Virus record (IMG/VR): IMGVR_UViG_3300042197_003333
Location: 1-64,000 of that record
From: a virus
DNA: 64,000 nt
Reading direction: 5' to 3' (one strand)
Positions 5,491-64,000 of the stretch are shown one piece after another (the first letter of the stretch is position 1; every line of letters starts with the position of its first letter). The notes below the pieces were generated by a model, which saw nothing but the letters and a program-made list of their open reading frames with translations, was not told the origin of the DNA and ran no database searches. The translations under genes were made by a program, and so were the position numbers.

Positions 5491-6729
5491 ATGGGTAAAA
5501 GATTAATTATAACAGAAGAAGAAAGAAAAAGAATTCTTAATTTATATGAACAACGTATTTCGGATTTACCTCAAAATCAACAAACATATACAGGACCAAA
5601 ACCAAATATCGGAACCCCAAAAACCAAAGACTTAAGAACCACACTTTCACCACAACAACAGCAACAATATAAGGATATGACAAGAGGGCAAAAAGATTTG
5701 TTCAAAATATATTATGGCGGAAACAAAGAAATAAGTCCAATTGGAAAGGACCCTAGTTTGGTTGAAAAAGTTAGATTAATATTTCCTAAAGCTGATTGGG
5801 AAAAAATAGGTTTACGTTTTTTTAGTATGTTTAACATATTCTCTGGATATTTTACGTCGTTGGCTGATGCTTTGAAACTTGTTGGTAATTTAATTAACAA
5901 AGGAGTCAAAACGAAAGAACTTGTAATTGGTTCTCATGGTGGAGGAGAGCAATTATTGATGACAAAATCTGGTGAAAATTTTAGATTTGACAATTCATTT
6001 TTGGAAAGTATTAAAGAAATTGTGACTCCATCTACAAAAGTTTTTTTCACGGCATGTCATGGAGCGGATGACTTGGAAATGTTAAAAGATGCTGCCGAAA
6101 AGTTGGGAGTTGGAGCATATGCGTCCAAGGGGGTATATAACTATATAACAAATGAAAGCGAAAAAGGTTTTTATTGGTGTTCACCCAATTCTTATAATGT
6201 ACCAAGGGATTCTAAACCTGAAGAACCATTGAATCCTATTGAAGAACAAAAAAAATCTGCACAAGTACAGGTTAGGTTTTTATCTAAAGAAAAACCAACT
6301 GAAATTAACTATACAATAACTACGGAAATTTTTGGAATTCCTATTAAAACTATAAAAAAATTTAATTTTGAATCTAAAAATTATGGAGTGAGTAGTATTA
6401 ACAAGGGTGAATTTTTGATTGAGGGATGGATAGACATTAATTATGATTTGGAGGAATATATAGGTGGATACACTGATAACCCTCCAGCGAATCAAGACGC
6501 ATTAGCCAAATCCTGGTACAATCAAAGCAAGAAAACGCCAAATATGGAAGAATTTTTAGGTAATAAGTTCGTAAATGGAGAAATTAAAATAGAACTGGAT
6601 GGAGCTGATATAAAGACACTGAAACCTTTTTCATTACCTTTATCAGTAGATGATGATTTTTTATTGGAAAACAATCTTTGTAGAAAAGTTGAAAGTTCAC
6701 CGGTTAGTTGGTTTGAACCCATCAGTTAA
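5491..6729 (+). CDS. Leader-bearing protein with clan CD (DUF4347-like) His/Cys peptidase-like domain
   Basis: Leader MGKRLIITEEERKRILNLYEQ; IGSHGGG and FTACHGA motifs resemble a His-Gly/Ala-Cys dyad. Confidence 0.55.
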   Translation: MGKRLIITEEERKRILNLYEQRISDLPQNQQTYTGPKPNIGTPKTKDLRTTLSPQQQQQYKDMTRGQKDLFKIYYGGNKEISPIGKDPSLVEKVRLIFPKADWEKIGLRFFSMFNIFSGYFTSLADALKLVGNLINKGVKTKELVIGSHGGGEQLLMTKSGENFRFDNSFLESIKEIVTPSTKVFFTACHGADDLEMLKDAAEKLGVGAYASKGVYNYITNESEKGFYWCSPNSYNVPRDSKPEEPLNPIEEQKKSAQVQVRFLSKEKPTEINYTITTEIFGIPIKTIKKFNFESKNYGVSSINKGEFLIEGWIDINYDLEEYIGGYTDNPPANQDALAKSWYNQSKKTPNMEEFLGNKFVNGEIKIELDGADIKTLKPFSLPLSVDDDFLLENNLCRKVESSPVSWFEPIS

Positions 6730-6845
6730 ATTATTTGATATATTATTTTGGTTTTAAAATAAATTTTTTTCCATTTTATCAATCCCCCCAACCCCCTTTT
6801 TTTGTTTTTATATTAAAATTTATTTTATAGTTCATTTTTTTGTTA

Positions 6846-6853
6846 TATATTTG
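6846..6853 (+). promoter_or_regulatory. Bacteroidota-type -7 promoter element TAnnTTTG (representative copy)
   Basis: TATATTTG just upstream of ATG 6858; further copies at 8002, 10092, 11619, 44387 (+) and 2851, 3415, 4968, 17301, 18558, 19081, 20365, 39015, 43268 (-). Confidence 0.75.
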
Positions 6854-6857
6854 TTCC

Positions 6858-7364
6858 ATGAATTTATCTGATTATACTTTTGACGAACTTGTTAAATTAA
6901 AAAACGAGATTGAATCCCATCTTTATTCGGTTTCCGATGGATATTTGTATTTATGTAATGTTCGTTCTTATGGAAGGAATTGGACTGAACGACCATTAAA
7001 TACTTATTCCCTTTCCGAATTATGTTATGGATATAATGGTGATGATGGAATTGTTGATGTTTATTCAACCAACCCTGATTTGAATATTGATAATTATGGT
7101 GATGTGTATTATATAAAATCTGAAGAAGATTATAAAGCTTGGAAAGAATGGAATTATTTAACAACCCAAATTCCATATATGGAAAAAGAACTTGAAGAAT
7201 GGGAAAACAGGGAAAATGTTCCTTTTAATATTCGTCCACGTTTTTCCCCATATTTTACCCGTGAAGACATTGATGAATATAAGAAACAACTTATTGAGTA
7301 TGACATGAGTTTTGTTGCTCCGGTTCGTATTTATGTAAGGAATGATGAAGATGGTGCATCTTAA
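6858..7364 (+). CDS. Hypothetical protein
   Basis: ORF 6840..7364; ATG 6858 follows the TAnnTTTG box. Confidence 0.75.
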   Translation: MNLSDYTFDELVKLKNEIESHLYSVSDGYLYLCNVRSYGRNWTERPLNTYSLSELCYGYNGDDGIVDVYSTNPDLNIDNYGDVYYIKSEEDYKAWKEWNYLTTQIPYMEKELEEWENRENVPFNIRPRFSPYFTREDIDEYKKQLIEYDMSFVAPVRIYVRNDEDGAS

Positions 7365-7539
7365 TATATTGATTTCAATTCTTGCATATGTTTGGATTGG
7401 ATATTGCGCCATATCACATATTCAAATTGAAGCCAAAAAGAAAAACGAGGGTATTTCATTTAATGAACAAAAAATTGGATATATTGTTCAAGTTTTGTTT
7501 TATTGGTTGATTGCATCCGTTATTTTATATGTCATTTAA
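7351..7539 (+). CDS. Small two-TM membrane protein
   Basis: Two hydrophobic segments; overlaps end of the upstream gene. Confidence 0.55.
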   Translation: MVHLNILISILAYVWIGYCAISHIQIEAKKKNEGISFNEQKIGYIVQVLFYWLIASVILYVI

Positions 7540-7573
7540 ATAACCCCTCTGATAATAGAATTGTCAGACCGAC

Positions 7574-7601
7574 CCCTTTTAATAAAGGGGTTTCTTTTTT
7601 T
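7574..7601 (+). terminator. Rho-independent terminator
   Basis: CCCCTTT/AAAGGGG stem followed by T-rich tract. Confidence 0.6.
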
Positions 7602-7612
7602 GGTATATGATA

Positions 7613-45225: not shown

Positions 45226-45236
45226 AAAAAGGGGGA

Positions 45237-46490
45237 TTATTCCCCCTTTGTTTTTCTTGCCCTTTTTGTCTTCTTATATTCCGAGTAAAGCACTTTTTCA
45301 TCTTCAATTCTCATAACGTAAAGTGTTTCTTCTTTAAGATTTTTTCTTAAAACTTCGTCGGAAATAAAATCTTCAATCTTTTCTTGAATTGCCCGTTTAA
45401 GCGGTCTTGCTCCATATACCTCATCAAACCCAACTTTTGAAATAAAGTCAATAACTGATTCATCAAAAGTAATATTAAGTTTCAACCCCTCAAGTCTTGA
45501 CTGCAATTTGTTAATTTCAACTTTAACAATCTTTTTAACATCTTCATCGTTTAATGTATTAAAAACAATTACCTCATCAATACGATTTATAAATTCGGGG
45601 GCAAAATGATTTTTTAATTCTTTATTCAACATTTGTTTTTTAACCTCTTGGTCAGCATATACGTTGTTTGTTTTGGAAAATCCAATCCCCGCTCCAAAAT
45701 CTTGCATTTTTTTGACCCCAATATTTGATGTCATAATGATAAGACAATTTTTAAAGTTAATTTTTCTTCCAAAACTATCTGTCATATAACCTTCATCCAA
45801 AAGTTGGAGGAGTGATGAAAAAATATCACGATGAGCCTTTTCAACTTCATCAAAAAGAACAACCGAATATGGTTTTGTCTTAACCTGTTCTGTTAATTGA
45901 CCCCCTTCTTCATATCCAACATAACCTGGAGGTGAACCAATCAATCTTGAAACCGAGTGTTTTTCTTGAAATTCACTCATATCAACCCTAATTAAATTTT
46001 CTTCACTTCCAAATATCTGTTTTGCCAATTCTTTCGCTAAAAGAGTATTGTGAGATAAAATACCATTAGTATAATATCTTCTATTAGAACCTTCTTTTAA
46101 TTCTAAATCAAACATAACTTCTTCGTACCCTAAATTAGTTATTGATACAACTTCACATTCTTCTAATTTATCATCACCAAATACACATATTTTATCACCA
46201 ACATTTAAATTCTTCACAAAAACTTCTTCCATATTGTCAATATAAAAAACAATATGATTATCGGCGCATTTGAGTTCTTTACCATCAGATAATTTAAGGT
46301 GATAAACCTCATAAGGTATTGTTTCATGTAATGCCTCAATATCAACAAAACCGGTGTCGGTTAATATTTCATAATCTGATATTTTAGTTGTTTTAGTAAA
46401 TTTTTTTAATGAATCTAATTCGTGTTTATCAAATAAAAAAACATTATCTAATTTCTCAATTCGTTTTTGTATTTCTTCAATTCCATTCAT
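45237..46490 (-). CDS. clpC: ClpC fragment 3: IntC-2 (148 aa, 46490..46047) plus C-terminal NBD2 extein
   Basis: CADNH (block B), MFDLEL..YTNGILSHN/T; then LIRVDMSEF, RLIGSPPGYVGYEEGG, VLFDEVEKAH, GIGF loop, GARPLKR. Confidence 0.9.
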   Translation of the reverse strand: MNGIEEIQKRIEKLDNVFLFDKHELDSLKKFTKTTKISDYEILTDTGFVDIEALHETIPYEVYHLKLSDGKELKCADNHIVFYIDNMEEVFVKNLNVGDKICVFGDDKLEECEVVSITNLGYEEVMFDLELKEGSNRRYYTNGILSHNTLLAKELAKQIFGSEENLIRVDMSEFQEKHSVSRLIGSPPGYVGYEEGGQLTEQVKTKPYSVVLFDEVEKAHRDIFSSLLQLLDEGYMTDSFGRKINFKNCLIIMTSNIGVKKMQDFGAGIGFSKTNNVYADQEVKKQMLNKELKNHFAPEFINRIDEVIVFNTLNDEDVKKIVKVEINKLQSRLEGLKLNITFDESVIDFISKVGFDEVYGARPLKRAIQEKIEDFISDEVLRKNLKEETLYVMRIEDEKVLYSEYKKTKRARKTKGE

Positions 46491-46491
46491 A

Positions 46492-47712
46492 TCATTTGTT
46501 TTTTAAAAATTTTATACATTTATTTATTATCTCTTGCTTATTCCCCCACCTATATTCAGAGTCCCATATTACTAAAACTTCAAAACCACAATTTTTGGCC
46601 ATGCATAATTTTAATTTATCCTTATCCCAAATTTCTTGTGCAGTTATGTTTTGTTTAAATGGATTTGGGTAATCTGTTGATTTATATTTTGTTGGGTTTG
46701 CGTGAAATGAATCTCCATGAAACTCAATTATTTTTTTATTAATAGTGTCAGTAAAATCGTATAACCAAACTCCGCCATTTTCTTTTTCTAACTTGAATTC
46801 TTTATTATGTGTTGCAAAATAAATTTTATCTTTATCAACAATATCATATTTTTCTAAAAGTTTATAAAATAAATCTTGTGAAATTTTAGAAAACCCAATA
46901 ACCATACTACCATTTTTTATCAAAGAATTTAACCATTTATCCTGTCTTTCATTAAATCTTTTTTTACCTTGTTCTTCACCATATTTTTTTATACATTTTT
47001 CTAATGAAAAAGTTGATTGGTGTTTAGATACTTTTTCTTTTGCTTCTTCTTCAGATAATCCAGTTTTTGTCCAATATTTAATATTAGAAGGTATTAATCT
47101 TTTTTGGAAATCTACTTGTTTAGCCGATTTTTTTTGATTTTTAGAAATAATTTTTTTAGCCTCAAGTTCTGTTTTACCTTTATTAATCCAAAATTCAACT
47201 TTTGAAGGAGTTAAACAAATTTTATTTATTTCTTCTTCAGTATATCCTTTTTCTATTAGCATTTTTTTAGATTTACCATGATGAGTTTTAACACATTTAG
47301 AAGATTTTTGCTGTTGTTTTGAAATTTCTTTAGTCGCTAATTCTTTTGGGTAACCTTTATTTATCCAATACTCTTCACATAAACGATTTCTTTTTTTAAT
47401 TTCATAATTTCTGTTTTCTAATTCTTTTAAAGCTTCTTTTTCATCCCAACCACGCTCAATAAAATATTCTATTTTGCCCCATTTTTTAGTTTTAAAGCTA
47501 TAATTTTTTACCAACCACCCTCTCATTAATGAATATGAAATAGTACCATCTTGTTCTTCTAATTTATTCATCAAAGATTGCATTTCTTTTTTTATTTTTT
47601 CATTATTGTAACGTATGTTCTTATCTAATTTTAAAACATAATTTTTAAATGTTTCTAAATCTGGAAAAATTTCGTTTATTTCTTTAGTTCCTTTGTTTGT
47701 TTTTATTTTCAT
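46492..47712 (-). CDS. Free-standing Vsr-like PD-(D/E)XK homing endonuclease splitting intein 2
   Basis: Repeats (Y/F)WxxKGxxExEAxxxIS; C-terminal YDF..IIEFHGDSFHANP..GFEVLVIWDSE. Confidence 0.75.
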   Translation of the reverse strand: MKIKTNKGTKEINEIFPDLETFKNYVLKLDKNIRYNNEKIKKEMQSLMNKLEEQDGTISYSLMRGWLVKNYSFKTKKWGKIEYFIERGWDEKEALKELENRNYEIKKRNRLCEEYWINKGYPKELATKEISKQQQKSSKCVKTHHGKSKKMLIEKGYTEEEINKICLTPSKVEFWINKGKTELEAKKIISKNQKKSAKQVDFQKRLIPSNIKYWTKTGLSEEEAKEKVSKHQSTFSLEKCIKKYGEEQGKKRFNERQDKWLNSLIKNGSMVIGFSKISQDLFYKLLEKYDIVDKDKIYFATHNKEFKLEKENGGVWLYDFTDTINKKIIEFHGDSFHANPTKYKSTDYPNPFKQNITAQEIWDKDKLKLCMAKNCGFEVLVIWDSEYRWGNKQEIINKCIKFLKNK

Positions 47713-47758: not shown

Positions 47759-49270
47759 CTAATTGGTGTCGGTAATGATATTTTTTATTTTTATTGTCTT
47801 TATTTCACCAGTAAACTTGTTTCTAACTATAATTTCAGTATCTTCACAAACACATTTTCCAACACCTGTTGAACCCAAAAATATGAATGAACCAATTGGT
47901 TTATTTGGGTCTTTAATACCCAACCTATTTCTTCTTATTGATTTTGATATTGTTGTGATTGCTTCAATTTGGCCTATAACTGATTTTGACAAATTATCTT
48001 CCATATTTATCAAATTTTCTGTATCATCAACTGATAATTTGGTAACTGGAATTTTTGTCATTATTGAAACAACATCATAAACAAGTTCAATTGAAATGTC
48101 TCTTCTTTTTGTTAATAAATCTTGTTCAAATTTGGTTCTTTCAGCATCTAATTGACTCAAAATCTTTTTTTCCCTGTCTCTTAATTGTGCTGCCATTTCA
48201 TAATTTTGCCTTTTGACAACAAGTAATTTTTCTTCCCTAATTTTTTGTGATTCTTTCTTTAATTCCTCAATAATTTCGGGATTTTTAACATCAACTTGAG
48301 CTCTTGCTCCAACTTCGTCCAAAATATCAAAAGCCTTATCAGGAAATTCTCTATCTGTTATATATCTGTCGGCCAAATCAACACATGCGTTTAAAATTTC
48401 ATCTGTAAAATTAACCTTGTGATGAATTTCGTATTTTTCTTTCAAATTTTGAAGAATTTGAAGAGTTTCTTCTTTTGTTGATGGTGAAACAATTACTTTT
48501 TGGAACCTCCTGTCAAGAGCCCCGTCTTTTTCAATATTTTTCTTAAATTCATCAAGTGTTGTTGCTCCAATGCACTGAATTTCACCTCTTGATAATGCGG
48601 GTTTTAGAATATTTGATGCGTCAAGTGAACCAGATGCGTTTCCAGCCCCAACAAGGGTATGAATTTCGTCAATAAAAAGAACTACATTTGGATTTACCGT
48701 AATTTCGTCAATTATAACCTTTAATCTTTCTTCAAATTGACCCCTATATTTTGTTCCCGCAACAATTGAATTTAAATCAAGTGATAAAATTCTTTTGTCA
48801 ACCAAATTTCTTGGGCAATCTCCTTGAAATATTTTCATTGCAAGACCCTCAACTATCGCCGTCTTTCCGCAATTATGGGAAACAACTCCATTTGATATAT
48901 ATTTTCTTTCATCGTCTAAAACTTCTAAATCATAGGTATTATTAATTCCTATTTCAGTATATTCTATAACATCAACCAATTCATTATTTTCAGTCCAAAC
49001 AAATTCACCTTCTGTAATGTTACCTAAACTTAACCAACAAGAATTATTTTCAAAAACAACATTTGGATTTAAAGAATTTTTAGAAACTTCAACCAAATGT
49101 TCGTCAGAACCTGATAATTCTAAACCATTTGATAGTTTAATTCTAATACAATTTTTATTGTTTTTTTTGTATAAATTACCAATTAATTTATATCCTGATG
49201 GTGTTTTAATTTTGTAAGTCCCACCTTTTTTTTCAACAAGGTCAAAAAAATCTTCTATTTTTATTTTCAT
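47759..49270 (-). CDS. clpC: ClpC fragment 2: IntC-1 (133 aa) plus middle extein (339 aa) plus IntN-2 (31 aa, 47854..47762)
   Basis: TYDLEV..ISNGVVSHN/CGKTAIVEGLA; AGTKYRGQFEER; LFIDEIH; UVR-like middle domain; FLGSTGVGK/CVCEDTEI. Confidence 0.9.
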   Translation of the reverse strand: MKIKIEDFFDLVEKKGGTYKIKTPSGYKLIGNLYKKNNKNCIRIKLSNGLELSGSDEHLVEVSKNSLNPNVVFENNSCWLSLGNITEGEFVWTENNELVDVIEYTEIGINNTYDLEVLDDERKYISNGVVSHNCGKTAIVEGLAMKIFQGDCPRNLVDKRILSLDLNSIVAGTKYRGQFEERLKVIIDEITVNPNVVLFIDEIHTLVGAGNASGSLDASNILKPALSRGEIQCIGATTLDEFKKNIEKDGALDRRFQKVIVSPSTKEETLQILQNLKEKYEIHHKVNFTDEILNACVDLADRYITDREFPDKAFDILDEVGARAQVDVKNPEIIEELKKESQKIREEKLLVVKRQNYEMAAQLRDREKKILSQLDAERTKFEQDLLTKRRDISIELVYDVVSIMTKIPVTKLSVDDTENLINMEDNLSKSVIGQIEAITTISKSIRRNRLGIKDPNKPIGSFIFLGSTGVGKCVCEDTEIIVRNKFTGEIKTIKIKNIITDTN

Positions 49271-50439
49271 AATACATTTAATATTTTATCATATAGTTTA
49301 GTAAAATCTGTCTCATAAATCAATTTAATTTTGTTTTCATTACAAAATAAAATTTTTTTATTCATTTTATCGTAATATTTAGATTGTTTTTCGTCTAATT
49401 TGTTAAAATTTTTTCCGTCTAAAATACCAAAATATTCAATATACACATCGTAATCAGGTAGATAAAAATCACATTTAAAATGCGAATTCGGGTACCCAAT
49501 CTCATATGAATAATTAATTTTTTTAAATTCAAATAAAAGACAAAGTTTATATTCTTTAACGCTTTTAAATCTAATCCCATTATGATATACAGGGGTACCA
49601 TATAAGCCACACTTTAACTCATAAGGAAATGATGAAAAAAAAGTTTTTTTAATTGTGTCTTTATTAGTATTGTACCTATTTGAAATGATTGAGCTATTAA
49701 TGTAAGGGATAATATCTGAAATAGTTTTAACGTCTATTTTTGTTAAAACACACAAAACAAATTTTGAAATAGAATCACAATCAATACATTCTGTTATAAT
49801 TTTTTTTGTACTATCTAAAAAAGATGTTCTTACTATTAAATCTTTTATTGGTACTTTATCAAAAGAATATGAGTTCTTTTTTTTATTAATTTCATTAATT
49901 TTATTATTTGTGTGAAGACTATTAATCCATTTTTTTTGTCTTTTTTGGAAAATTTCAACTCCTTCCTCTTCACCATATTTTTGAATACAAATTTTTTTGC
50001 TAAAAGTTTTTTGACTTTCAGAAATTAAATTTTTTGCCTCTTCAGAACTAAATCCTTTTTTTACCCAATATTCAATTCTTTTAGGGGATTTGTCATAAAA
50101 TTTTTCAGGATTTATTTTCTTTTTGTCTGAAAGAATTTTAGAATTTTTTTTCTGTTGCTCACTAATAAATTGAGTTATTTCTGATTTTTCCCATCCCATC
50201 ATAAATAAAAAGTCTTCATTATATACACTTTCAGGGTAATTAACTATTTGTCTATACCACTTCTTAATTTCCTTAAAATTAATTTGAGTCGTATTTTTAA
50301 TTTGATTATTAACTTTATCAATACAAGAGTCGGGTATTTTTTTAAAGAACTTAAAAAAATTATTATTTAAAATAAAATTTTCTAAATCAATATGATTTGA
50401 TATAGTTAATAATTTTTTTCTTTTAAAGAAAACATTCAT
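49267..50439 (-). CDS. Free-standing PD-(D/E)XK homing endonuclease splitting intein 1
   Basis: YWVKKGFSSEEAKNLISESQ, CIQKYGEEEG shared with 46492..47712; FKSVKE..KCDFYLPDYDVYIEYFG. Confidence 0.75.
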   Translation of the reverse strand: MNVFFKRKKLLTISNHIDLENFILNNNFFKFFKKIPDSCIDKVNNQIKNTTQINFKEIKKWYRQIVNYPESVYNEDFLFMMGWEKSEITQFISEQQKKNSKILSDKKKINPEKFYDKSPKRIEYWVKKGFSSEEAKNLISESQKTFSKKICIQKYGEEEGVEIFQKRQKKWINSLHTNNKINEINKKKNSYSFDKVPIKDLIVRTSFLDSTKKIITECIDCDSISKFVLCVLTKIDVKTISDIIPYINSSIISNRYNTNKDTIKKTFFSSFPYELKCGLYGTPVYHNGIRFKSVKEYKLCLLFEFKKINYSYEIGYPNSHFKCDFYLPDYDVYIEYFGILDGKNFNKLDEKQSKYYDKMNKKILFCNENKIKLIYETDFTKLYDKILNVL

Positions 50440-50478: not shown

Positions 50479-50772
50479 TCAGATAGTTTCAATATTATGG
50501 GTATTTACAACTGAAATTTTTTCAACTTCAATAATAGTGTCCCCAAGTACGCAACCCGGCTCACCAATAATAATTGGGTTATTTTTTTTCCTTCTTGATA
50601 AAATTTGAGCGATTCTCAAAATTTCTTGTTCTCGTCCAACAACTGGGTCAAGTTTTCCTTCTTCTGCCAATTTAATTAAGTCCCTTGAAAAATTATCAAG
50701 TACAGGGGTTTGACCTTCTTGTGTTCTTTGGTTTCCACCACCTTTTTTTCCTTCGTCTGGAGTTTCTGTCAT
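50479..50772 (-). CDS. clpC: ClpC fragment 1: N-extein (73 aa) plus IntN-1 (24 aa, 50553..50482)
   Basis: [47 protein letters not shown]. Confidence 0.9.
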
Positions 50773-61820: not shown

Positions 61821-64000
61821 ATGATGGAAAATAATAAAATGACAGTATGGCAAAGATTGTCCCAAGCTTTTGGTCCAAATTCATTGCTCGGACAAGATTA
61901 TCCAACATACAAATACGATAAAAAAGAACTTTTAAGGACAACATCCAAAAAAGAATATGACCTTGAAAAACTTCAAGCTCAACAAAATTACTATCTTGCA
62001 AACCAATGGTCAAAGATTGAACACAATCTTTATACCCAAGCAGTGTATTACGAACCAACAAGATTATCATCTTTTTATGACCTAGAAAGTATGGAGTTTA
62101 CTCCAGAAATATCTGCAGCTTTAGATATTTACGCCGAAGAATCAACGACAGTAAACGAAGATGGTTATATGCTTCAAATTTATTCTGAATCAAAAAGAAT
62201 AAAATCAATTTTGGCTGACTTATTTAACAACGCTCTTGATATTAACACAAACCTTCCGATGTGGACAAGAAACACATGCAAGTATGGTGATAATTTCGTT
62301 TATTTAAAACTTGACCCCGAAAAAGGTATAGTTGGATGTATGCAACTTCCAATTATTGAAATTGAAAGATTGGAAGCGGGAATGGGAGGAAAATCTGCCG
62401 ACCCTGAAACAAACCCAACAAAAAAACATACAAGATTTAAATGGAAACAAAAGGACTTGGAGTTCAATACTTGGGAAGTTGCTCACTTTAGATTACTTGG
62501 TGATGATAGGAGACTACCGTATGGAACTTGCCTAAAATTTGATACTAAAATTGATACTGAATATGGAGTTAAAGAAATTAAAGATATTGTAAAAGGGGAT
62601 AAAGTTTATTCATTTGATTTAAATTCAGAAGAAAAAGTATTGTCTGATGTTTTAGATACTGTAAATTCAGGAGTTAAAATTTGTTACCAAATACATACTA
62701 AACATAATTTTATTGAAGCTTCAGAAGAACACAAAATATTAATTTTTGATGGAAATAAATTTACATATAAAAATACATTAGAATTAAATATTGGTGATTT
62801 ATTAGTTATTGACAATTCAAAAAATAAAACTAAAAAAACTTTGATTAATAAAACACAACCTGAAGATAATAAAAACGGATGGTTTAATAGTGTTGATTTA
62901 ATACCTGAATATATAAATGAAGAATTTGCTAGATTTTTTGGATTTATGTTAGGTGATGGCTGGATTAGTAATAATGGTGTTTATTTTGCATTATCTGAAT
63001 ATGATGATTTAAATGATTTTTATATTGGGATATTAAACAAATATTCCAAAAATCCAGTAAAAATTATTGAGGTTGATGGCAAAGAAACACAATGCATGGT
63101 GTGGTCAAAGTGTTTAAAGACAATTTTAGAAAGAATGGGTTTTAATGGTAAGGCCTCAACTAAAAGATTACCTAGTTGGATATACAGCTCGGATGTAGAA
63201 ATACAAAAGGCTCTTTTAGAGGGACTAATAGACTCAGACGGATGGATAACACAAGATAAATGGTCAACACATCTTAATATTGAATTATGTAATGAAAATT
63301 TAGTAAAAGACGTTAAAACTTTATGCCAAAAGATTGGATATAAATCAGGTTCAATTAGAAAAAGAGAACCAAGAAAAAATGTGGTAATTGAAGGTAGAAA
63401 AATTAAATCGGTAAAACCAAGTTATTCTTTGACTTTTTATGATACCTTATTAACTCAAACGAAAAAATATGACAACCAATTTAGAAAAAATGAAAATTAC
63501 ATTTTAGAACCAATTACAAAAATTATTGACATTGGAGAACATGAAACTTTTGATATATACGTTGAAAATCAAAATCATAATTTTTACGCTAATGGAGTCG
63601 TTGTACATAATTCAATGTTAGAAAAAGCTCGTCGTATTTGGAAACAATTATTATTATCCGAAGACGCAATGTTAATTTATAGAACATCAAGAGCTCCTGA
63701 AAGAAGAGTATTTAAAGTATTTGTTGGAAATATGGATGACGCAGATGTTGAACCTTATATCCAAAGATTTGCAAATAAATTTAAACGAGACCAAGTTGTT
63801 GACTCTAAATCAGGAAATGTTGATATGAGGTTTAATCAAATGGCGGTTGACCAAGATTATTTTGTTCCCGTTAGAGACCCAGCTCAAGCTTCCCCAATTG
63901 AAACATTAGCAGGTGCCACAAACCTATCGGAAATCGCGGATATTGAATATATTCAAAAGAAATTGCTCACCGCAATTCGTGTTCCAAAAGCGTTTTTAGG
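61821..64000 (+). CDS. Portal protein (T4 gp20-like), intein-containing, truncated by window end
   Basis: Manual translation: PEISAALDIYAEE, CKYGDNF, LPYGT/intein/SMLEKARRIWKQL..EDAMLIYRTSRAPERRVF..QDYFVP. Confidence 0.9.
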   Translation, partial: MMENNKMTVWQRLSQAFGPNSLLGQDYPTYKYDKKELLRTTSKKEYDLEKLQAQQNYYLANQWSKIEHNLYTQAVYYEPTRLSSFYDLESMEFTPEISAALDIYAEESTTVNEDGYMLQIYSESKRIKSILADLFNNALDINTNLPMWTRNTCKYGDNFVYLKLDPEKGIVGCMQLPIIEIERLEAGMGGKSADPETNPTKKHTRFKWKQKDLEFNTWEVAHFRLLGDDRRLPYGTCLKFDTKIDTEYGVKEIKDIVKGDKVYSFDLNSEEKVLSDVLDTVNSGVKICYQIHTKHNFIEASEEHKILIFDGNKFTYKNTLELNIGDLLVIDNSKNKTKKTLINKTQPEDNKNGWFNSVDLIPEYINEEFARFFGFMLGDGWISNNGVYFALSEYDDLNDFYIGILNKYSKNPVKIIEVDGKETQCMVWSKCLKTILERMGFNGKASTKRLPSWIYSSDVEIQKALLEGLIDSDGWITQDKWSTHLNIELCNENLVKDVKTLCQKIGYKSGSIRKREPRKNVVIEGRKIKSVKPSYSLTFYDTLLTQTKKYDNQFRKNENYILEPITKIIDIGEHETFDIYVENQNHNFYANGVVVHNSMLEKARRIWKQLLLSEDAMLIYRTSRAPERRVFKVFVGNMDDADVEPYIQRFANKFKRDQVVDSKSGNVDMRFNQMAVDQDYFVPVRDPAQASPIETLAGATNLSEIADIEYIQKKLLTAIRVPKAFL
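62529..63611 (+). mobile_element. Contiguous intein (361 aa) with LAGLIDADG endonuclease in the portal
   Basis: CLKFDTKI start; IEASEEH; FFGFMLGDG and LLEGLIDSDG; TFDIYV..FYANGVVVHN/S. Confidence 0.92.

Follow-up and report, generated by a model that had tools for sequence, protein, structure and literature searches.

How can an ATPase be assembled when its gene has been broken into three, and what prevents the middle piece from closing on itself? These questions are raised by a locus in a 64,000-nucleotide stretch of viral DNA (the window; positions 1 to 64,000 of the IMG/VR record IMGVR_UViG_3300042197_003333), which is part of an 80-kb record rated 27% complete. The source is a large uncultured phage in which a ClpC-type unfoldase is encoded as three proteins. 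Five open reading frames (ORFs) follow one another from 50772 to 45237, all read from the minus strand; these are three ClpC fragments and, between them, two genes for endonuclease-like proteins (ORF 1 and ORF 2). Fragment 1 ends in the N-terminal part of a first split intein (IntN-1) and fragment 3 begins with the C-terminal portion of a second (IntC-2). Fragment 2 carries IntC-1 at its N-terminus and IntN-2 at its C-terminus on one chain, flanking a host segment (extein) of 339 residues, as a preliminary description of the locus had proposed and as a script run on the ORF at 49270..47759 confirmed. This is the geometry of split-intein circular ligation (SICLOPPS), reportedly due to Scott et al. 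1999, in which a single chain of the order IntC-target-IntN, made with the two halves of one intein, yields a cyclised target. The preliminary description was correct that a cognate pair placed in this way cyclises the segment between its halves, and it drew from this that orthogonality of the two inteins is obligatory.

The explanation which we favour, and consider probable, is that a single operon builds a 681-residue ClpC-type unfoldase through two trans-splicing steps, the two intein pairs being effectively orthogonal. We infer that splicing occurs, and that the pairs are effectively orthogonal for reasons both structural and kinetic. The five-ORF operon would thus yield a product of 681 residues without a Clp N-domain. 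Intein 1, formed from IntN-1 of fragment 1 and IntC-1 of fragment 2, would join GEPG to CGKT and complete the Walker A loop of the first ATPase domain (D1). Intein 2, formed from IntN-2 of fragment 2 and IntC-2 of fragment 3, would join GVGK to T and complete the Walker A loop of the second (D2). Neither ATPase site would exist until its respective splice had taken place. The inteins themselves would be independent mobile elements, each with or without a nuclease gene of its own, which meet repeatedly through homing or recombination. Correct assembly would follow from differences that existed beforehand, namely an identity of only some 30%, cuts at offset positions, a Glu rather than an Arg or Lys at position 11, and the acidity of IntN-1 and IntC-2. 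The 5'-to-3' order of the genes may also help, as IntC-1 could meet IntN-1 before IntN-2 has been translated. IntC-1 would be made about 370 codons ahead of IntN-2, with fragment 1 encoded on the same mRNA, and the first splice may remove IntC-1 early.

The predicted splice junctions are precise. Extein 1 is missing the Clp N-terminal domain. Extein 2 contributes what remains of the D1 ATPase domain, followed by lid, coiled-coil middle domain and the initial D2 strand up to GVGK. Extein 3 opens with the Thr of GK-T and from there supplies the D2 ATPase domain, together with the D2-small domain. The three exteins cover positions 163-224, 224-510 and 510-753 of PHROG 4871 ('ATP-dependent protease') without gap or overlap. 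An uninterrupted gene is present in 32 IMG/VR loci (L004-L035), where the three exteins abut at exactly the predicted bases; in the closest of these, L004, they correspond to 5609-5827, 5828-6844 and 6845-7606, at 94-96% identity. Removal of both inteins thus gives a continuous host protein. Intein 1 is inserted between the G and the xGKT of the D1 Walker A motif, and intein 2 between the GK and the T of the D2 Walker A motif. Walker B and the other extein motifs are invariant in an alignment (A2) that includes 15 three-piece forms. The Cys of GEPG-C-GKT is kept by most intein-free alleles (L004-L019, L030 and L035), more distant alleles having Ser, Ile or the canonical Val. Since this unusual D1 Walker A residue is the +1 nucleophile of intein 1, the intein-free Cys alleles look like pre-adapted homing sites or sites left by precise intein loss.

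Both inteins possess the residues of a class 1 split intein: Cys1, the block B His, the terminal His-Asn and a nucleophilic +1 residue, which is Cys for intein 1 and Thr for intein 2. Of the listed proteins, 119 of 120 with IntC-1 and 113 of 120 with IntC-2 retain Cys1, the terminal His-Asn and the +1 Cys or Thr, and the exceptions mostly miss the search pattern. For the block B His a smaller set was used, the 45-member alignment A1, where it is invariant as H67. Both inteins are atypically split, being cut right after motif N1 to leave an IntN of 24 or 31 residues and an IntC of 133 or 148 residues with blocks B, F and G. IntN-1 is 24 residues long in 14 of 15 sequence variants from paired loci (26 in the other) and is conserved to its last residue. 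For intein 2, the cognate IntN/IntC pairing rests on two loci, the window and L045. The features of the locus are collected in the table.

Table. Features of the three-piece ClpC locus (positions in the window)
Feature	Position	Strand	Description
Fragment 1	50772..50479	(-)	97 aa: ClpC extein 1 + IntN-1, then stop codon
ClpC extein 1	50554..50772	(-)	73 aa, ends GEPG (D1 Walker A loop, first half)
IntN-1	50482..50553	(-)	24 aa, Cys1, motif N1 (CVLGDT...), stop codon after
ORF 1	49267..50439	(-)	390 aa, free-standing, endonuclease-like, between the halves of intein 1
Fragment 2	49270..47759	(-)	503 aa: IntC-1 + ClpC extein 2 + IntN-2
IntC-1	48872..49270	(-)	133 aa; block B (SDEH), block F, terminal SHN; +1 Cys
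ClpC extein 2	47855..48871	(-)	339 aa, from CGKT to GVGK; Pfam AAA + AAA_lid_9
IntN-2	47762..47854	(-)	31 aa, starts with Cys1 (CVCEDTEIIVRNK..., CVCEDT); strand, turn, strand, helix start (AF2)
ORF 2	46492..47712	(-)	406 aa, free-standing, endonuclease-like, between the halves of intein 2
Fragment 3	46490..45237	(-)	IntC-2 + ClpC extein 3
IntC-2	46047..46490	(-)	148 aa; N-terminal extension of ~36 aa, block B (ADNH), block F, SHN; +1 Thr
ClpC extein 3	45240..46046	(-)	269 aa from TLLAKEL; Pfam AAA_2 (E 4e-58) + ClpB_D2-small
Terminator-like hairpin + T run	45228..45249	(-)	directly after fragment 3

The five ORFs are tightly coupled. ORF 1 starts 39 nt past the stop of fragment 1 and ends in a stop codon that overlaps the fragment 2 start (ATGA). 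ORF 2 starts 46 nt past the stop of fragment 2, and its own stop is placed 1 nt ahead of the fragment 3 start. The terminator-like hairpin after fragment 3 is strong, and nothing comparable is found between the five ORFs. The short spacers ahead of the nuclease ORFs, the overlapping stop and start and the single terminator are all signals of an operon and speak for the assembly proposed here. A scan for sigma-70 promoters returned 39 sites versus 35 expected.

Sequence comparison places the two inteins in different atypically split families. IntC-1 and IntC-2 are homologous but distant (29-33% identity, pairwise E 3e-8), and IntN-1 and IntN-2 share 10 of 24 residues, mostly in the catalytic motif. 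IntC-2 matches the Pfam family Intein_splicing (PF14890) with E 8.9e-8, scoring 32.5 bits in hmmscan, where the cut-off is 35.8, and 40.9 bits with the pieces summed. Its best match of solved structure is the CatC chain of the Cat consensus atypical intein (6DSL_B, E 4.6e-7). For IntC-1 the best solved matches are weak, gp41-1 and VidaL at E about 2e-3; the alignment with VidaL (6VGV, E 2.3e-3) spans residues 2-132. Neither IntN-1 nor IntN-2, taken by itself as a query, matched any solved-structure sequence, the peptides being too short.

Among 1.8 billion representative proteins, 65 relatives of IntC-1 were found. Nearly all are N-terminal IntC pieces that end in SHN followed by [C/T/S]GK[T/S], and their hosts are AAA ATPases (25 of the 45 scanned), PhoH, large terminase, RecA, helicases and a clamp-loader subunit; PF14890 is matched by 20 of these 45 scanned library relatives. 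The shared ends and P-loop hosts indicate that intein 1 belongs to an atypically split family which targets P-loop NTPases of many kinds at their Walker A loop. A tree of IntC domains places the ClpC IntC-1 and IntC-2 sets in separate clades with support of 95 and 99, the deep backbone being unresolved. Either clade has inteins of further representative proteins grouped with it, and the two nearest to IntC-1 come from ClpC-like AAA proteins. An origin of intein 2 as a duplicate of intein 1 on the paralogous P-loop was considered and rejected, given that the insertion points are two residues apart and that the two clades have their kin among the inteins of other proteins.

The arrangement is not peculiar to one phage. 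IntC-1 has homologues in 135 protein clusters. In 116 of the 120 listed, exactly 133 residues lead up to the junction of SHN with CGKT; of the remainder, three start 10 residues later and one is the cis form. About 100 of the listed proteins run on through D1 and D2 (~730-750 aa) and thus have intein 1 only. Another 15 are 499-505 aa long and end in IntN-2, as in the window, and a later search added one more (P0351). The three-piece layout is accordingly present in at least 16 protein clusters and in one further locus, L045. IntC-2 is found in 969 protein clusters, and most of the N-fragments that partner it are ~441-448 aa long (extein 1, extein 2 and IntN-2). Some N-fragments with IntN-2 are ~600-623 aa long and bear the Clp N-domain PF02861 (P0325, P0327, P0329, P0340, P0346, P0348, P0353 and P0359), and intein 2 is therefore also present in full-length ClpC genes outside the phage lineage that has no N-domain.

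Twenty-six intein-1 loci were fetched from IMG/VR. A nuclease ORF lies between the intein halves in 14 of them. The 12 that have none are nevertheless split, their IntN-1 stop and IntC-1 start being 6-121 nt apart. Nuclease-free split loci include L036/L037 (6692-9187), L038, L046, L047, L053, L067-L069 and L072, in which the gap is mostly 6-29 nt. Such alleles correspond to step III of the gene-breaking model of Dassa et al. Intein 1 is thus known as an allelic series comprising the empty site, a contiguous cis intein (P0071), the split form without a nuclease gene (12 loci) and the split form with one (14 loci). Among the 26 loci, L045 has three pieces like the window. The same locus has, at L045:1-1500 on its minus strand, a large-terminase gene that is also fractured by an atypically split intein with an ORF in between; the IntN there starts CVEYDT and is ~31 aa long, and the IntC ends SHN before a Cys.

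Three-piece forms are scattered as if at random over the intein-1 backgrounds. In a tree of IntC-1 plus extein 2 (112 proteins), 14 changes are needed for the 15 three-piece rows, compared with a mean of 14.3 when the labels are shuffled. P0086 and P0087, one three-piece and one two-piece, are 99.8% identical over 470 residues and have identical IntC-1, and P0003 and P0004 have identical IntC-1 with and without IntN-2 on the chain. IntN-2 likewise has no context-specific residues, the L045 variant being identical to that of P0347, which has no intein 1. This scatter, the near-identical pairs and the unchanged IntN-2 together indicate that intein 2 is gained and lost on intein-1 backgrounds, through homing or recombination, and that neither intein is visibly adjusted to the other. 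The preliminary description had offered selection as what keeps the two inteins orthogonal, and of this there is no trace. Any orthogonality was most likely already there when the inteins met, rather than selected in this gene, since they stem from different atypical families; mutual non-reaction of the two appears likely.

A structural reason for such non-reaction may lie in where the inteins are cut. This argument rests on secondary structure predicted by AlphaFold2 (AF2) and on alignments with PDB entries. A natural contiguous intein 1 is provided by P0071, an 829-aa JGI/ENA metagenome protein in which the IntN (15 residues) is joined to the IntC by KICQ. These four residues stand in place of the conserved 9-residue tail of IntN-1, the stop and the start, and P0071 may be either a natural cis-splicing relative or a re-fusion. 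In the AF2 model of its intein, strand 79-84 is followed by a turn, strand 89-94 and helix 95-105. Split intein 1 is cut after the first of these strands: IntN-1 consists of strand 1 and a conserved tail of 9-10 residues, whilst strand 2 and the helix stand at the front of IntC-1 (MKIKIEDFFDLV). IntN-2 is predicted to carry both strands, which in the AF2 model of fragment 2 are residues 479-483 and 490-494, separated by a turn and followed by the start of a helix at 495-497. The alignment with CatC begins at about residue 22-29 of IntC-2, the first 20-35 residues being an extra extension, and among homologues this extension ranges from none to about 260 residues. Additions of 100-260 residues in front of IntC-2 and D2 are seen in P0144, P0158, P0177, P0179, P0223 and P0227 (661-673 aa) and in P0151, P0171, P0174, P0182 and P0234, and a segment ...EKYEKMYFLEGIPEE... 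recurs within them. From additions of this size, the front of IntC-2 would seem to tolerate large fusions.

On the basis of these models, pairing of IntN-1 with IntC-2, by which the middle piece would be skipped, would leave an intein without the second strand and helix, and pairing of IntN-2 with IntC-1, by which a ring would be formed, would give one that holds them twice. A profile alignment of the two families with hhalign is confident only over the initial 11-14 residues and again once the third strand is reached, and the zone around the cuts is unreliable in it. The AF2 model of fragment 2 (41-row alignment) has a mean predicted local distance difference test score (pLDDT) of 65.7. The IntC-1 core reaches 82-86 and the lid and middle domain are good, the incomplete D1 core being poor. 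IntN-2 on fragment 2 scores 45-59, and IntN-1 in the cis protein P0071, intended as a positive control, scores 40-64 with no alignment rows there. The P0071 alignment was made without fragment 1 and intein-free rows, as MAFFT put those on the paralogous D2 P-loop.

Charge is a second pre-existing difference. The preliminary description counted correctly four Asp/Glu and one Lys in IntN-1 and five of each sign in IntN-2, and saw in this a possible determinant of specificity. The contrast is conserved across both families, with a net charge of -1 to -6 in 15 variants of IntN-1 and of -1 to +3 in 15 variants of IntN-2. At position 11 of the shared hairpin, 14 of 15 IntN-1 have Glu and all 15 IntN-2 have Arg or Lys. 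The mean net charge is -7.6 for IntC-1 and -13.8 for IntC-2. Charge would therefore repel the acidic IntN-1 from the very acidic IntC-2 and disfavour skipping of the middle piece. It would not repel the near-neutral IntN-2 from the acidic IntC-1, and so would give no protection against ring formation. The proposal thus holds for the skip, one of the two wrong pairings, and does not account for the other. A review describes atypical split inteins as docking via hydrophobic clusters, not by electrostatic capture (PMC11766414).

Several observations weigh against effective orthogonality. The first 12-13 residues of IntN-1 and IntN-2 are similar, with six identical, and an atypical IntC has been spliced with short IntN peptides of two other inteins (PMC3443213). 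In a matrix of 16 inteins, the cross-talk observed was mostly among those cut at atypical sites, and overlap of fragments does not necessarily stop splicing (PMC7090010). The IntN of AceL-TerL is accepted by GOS-TerL (PMC11766414). The concern over cross-reaction raised in the preliminary description was accordingly a legitimate one, as inteins with a short, atypical IntN are those that cross-react most often (PMC3443213; PMC7090010). The similar IntN starts, the published cross-reactions and the tolerance of overlap together make it conceivable that IntC-1 and IntN-2 form a cyclising pair. AF2 scores are alike for the cognate IntN-1, which had no alignment depth, and the non-cognate IntN-2, so that docking of the two was not separated. 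Finally, some three-piece alleles are very recent, having a two-piece relative of 99.8% identity, and these could represent transient and mildly harmful invasions rather than proof that the combination is tolerated.

These points lend some weight to a related explanation, in which orthogonality is partial and correct assembly mainly kinetic. Here the first splice would remove IntC-1 before it makes contact with IntN-2, and some circular or skipped by-product would be tolerated. The order of the genes from N- to C-terminal piece, their coupled starts and single terminator would suit such a mechanism, as would the similar hairpins of the two IntN, the documented cross-reaction of short IntN (PMC3443213, PMC7090010) and a charge pattern that does not disfavour IntN-2 on IntC-1. 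Gene order and co-translational timing could indeed lower ring formation without strict orthogonality, and to call orthogonality obligatory was therefore too strong. Against a mainly kinetic mechanism stand the deep divergence of the two inteins and their different cuts. Furthermore, the three-piece layout has many origins without a change in either intein, which is more easily explained if wrong pairings are negligible. We therefore regard partial orthogonality as possible but rather unlikely, and effective orthogonality as the better account.

It is very improbable that the ring is itself the outcome used, with IntC-1 and IntN-2 giving a circular 339-residue protein of D1 and middle domain that might, for example, modulate the Clp hexamers of host or phage. 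Fragment 2 does have the SICLOPPS geometry, and AF2 predicts disorder (pLDDT 31-45) in the D2 lead-in segment that precedes IntN-2, which could allow the two ends to meet. Such a product, however, would be without either complete Walker A loop. Moreover, identical IntC-1 occurs in two-piece genes without IntN-2, IntN-2 occurs in genes without IntC-1, no mutual adaptation is seen, and AF2 gives no confident docking. A partial self-closure, in which a circular 339-residue protein has its own role in infection alongside the full-length unfoldase, deserves equally little credence; if true, one split gene would give two products by alternative protein splicing. Decay of the gene, with clpC inactivated by inteins or nuclease insertions and its pieces never joined, is highly unlikely, for whilst four stop/start junctions interrupt the gene, the five ORFs are intact, all catalytic intein residues are kept, the extein ATPase motifs are invariant, the length of IntC-1 is fixed in nearly all listed proteins, and the split forms persist in the ~135 and 969 protein clusters of the two inteins, including contigs of 250-385 kb.

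Of the two intervening ORFs, ORF 1 has a weak PHROG match named 'Holliday junction resolvase'; ORF 2 matches PHROG 22677 (E 2.5e-26), and a copy 58% identical to it occupies the same place in L045. The two have in common a repeated module of ~45 residues (...EYW..KG.S.EEAK..IS..Q...), with 41% identity over 106 aa (E 2e-18), whereas their C-terminal nuclease-like domains differ, the one with the weak resolvase-like match and the other with PHROG 22677. Neither ORF has a Pfam match or a significant solved-structure match, and their PHROG matches are weak or unnamed; by eye, they have C-terminal motifs reminiscent of PD-(D/E)xK or Vsr-like nucleases. A third intein of the 80-kb record is of the classical unsplit kind. 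It lies in a 965-aa portal-like ORF at window positions 61821-64000, which runs to ~64718 of the record (L001:637-3534). This contiguous cis intein opens with CLKFDT behind ...LPYGT, closes with VVVHN ahead of SMLEK and contains a LAGLIDADG-type insert.

Split inteins, atypical cuts and fractured genes are already known, and a number of parallels can be drawn with them. The fractured genes described by Dassa et al. in 2009, which are of phage origin, have spacers of 27-51 nt and endonucleases of the GIY-YIG or Vsr-like families, and include a nuclease-free allele, gp41-7 (PMC2677866). The ClpC locus has the same plan on one strand, with the N-terminal host piece and IntN followed by a short spacer (39 or 46 nt here), a free-standing endonuclease gene, and the IntC with the C-terminal host piece. 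Like gp41-7, ClpC alleles without a nuclease gene exist. The loci of Dassa et al., by contrast, are each in two pieces, ClpC is not among their hosts, and that paper mentions no doubly split locus; ClpC is here broken in three by two split inteins (PMC2677866). In their set only the terminase locus is cut at an atypical point, whilst both ClpC inteins are so cut.

The ClpC inteins resemble AceL-TerL, GOS-TerL, Cat (6DSL), VidaL (6VGV) and PolB16 OarG (PMC10189870) in having a short IntN with motif N1 only and a long IntC, and the reported atypical IntN are of 15-37 aa (PMC11766414, PMC10189870). Those inteins have been characterised one at a time. They differ from the present ones, which have a new host protein and new insertion sites, represent two sub-families in one gene and show a variable IntC-2 extension. 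In the literature searched, no report was found in which two split inteins unite the three parts of a natural gene, and the locus thus represents a recurring and apparently undescribed natural arrangement. It extends the gene-breaking series from the empty site through the cis intein and the split forms without and with a nuclease gene to the doubly split gene, and suggests that two selfish elements can be stacked in one essential-looking gene without visible co-adaptation.

Further parallels are with designs made in the laboratory. Unlike in SICLOPPS, the intein halves on ClpC fragment 2 come from different inteins, placed in separate clades and 29-33% identical over their IntC, and their cognate partners are on fragments 1 and 3. 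This is instead the plan of engineered tandem trans-splicing, or 'protein transposition', in which two different split inteins are used and their orthogonality is treated as a requirement (PMC7210297, PMC11185735, PMC12707363). The three-fragment design with a middle piece of the form IntC-X-IntN is a workhorse of protein engineering, and the ClpC inteins, with their IntN of 24 and 31 aa, are candidates for a natural, atypically split pair whose members are mutually compatible, a type of reagent sought by protein chemists. Hundreds of natural variants of each half are available to mine in public metagenomes. As in the engineered systems, there are three fragments joined in order, the middle one being IntC(A)-segment-IntN(B), and the tandem design of the Muir laboratory has the atypically split Cat or VidaL on one side (PMC7210297, PMC12707363, PMC11185735). 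Unlike these designs, the ClpC locus is natural and phage-encoded and recurs in metagenomes; both of its inteins are atypically split, both lie inside Walker A loops, and each is able to carry a nuclease gene of its own.

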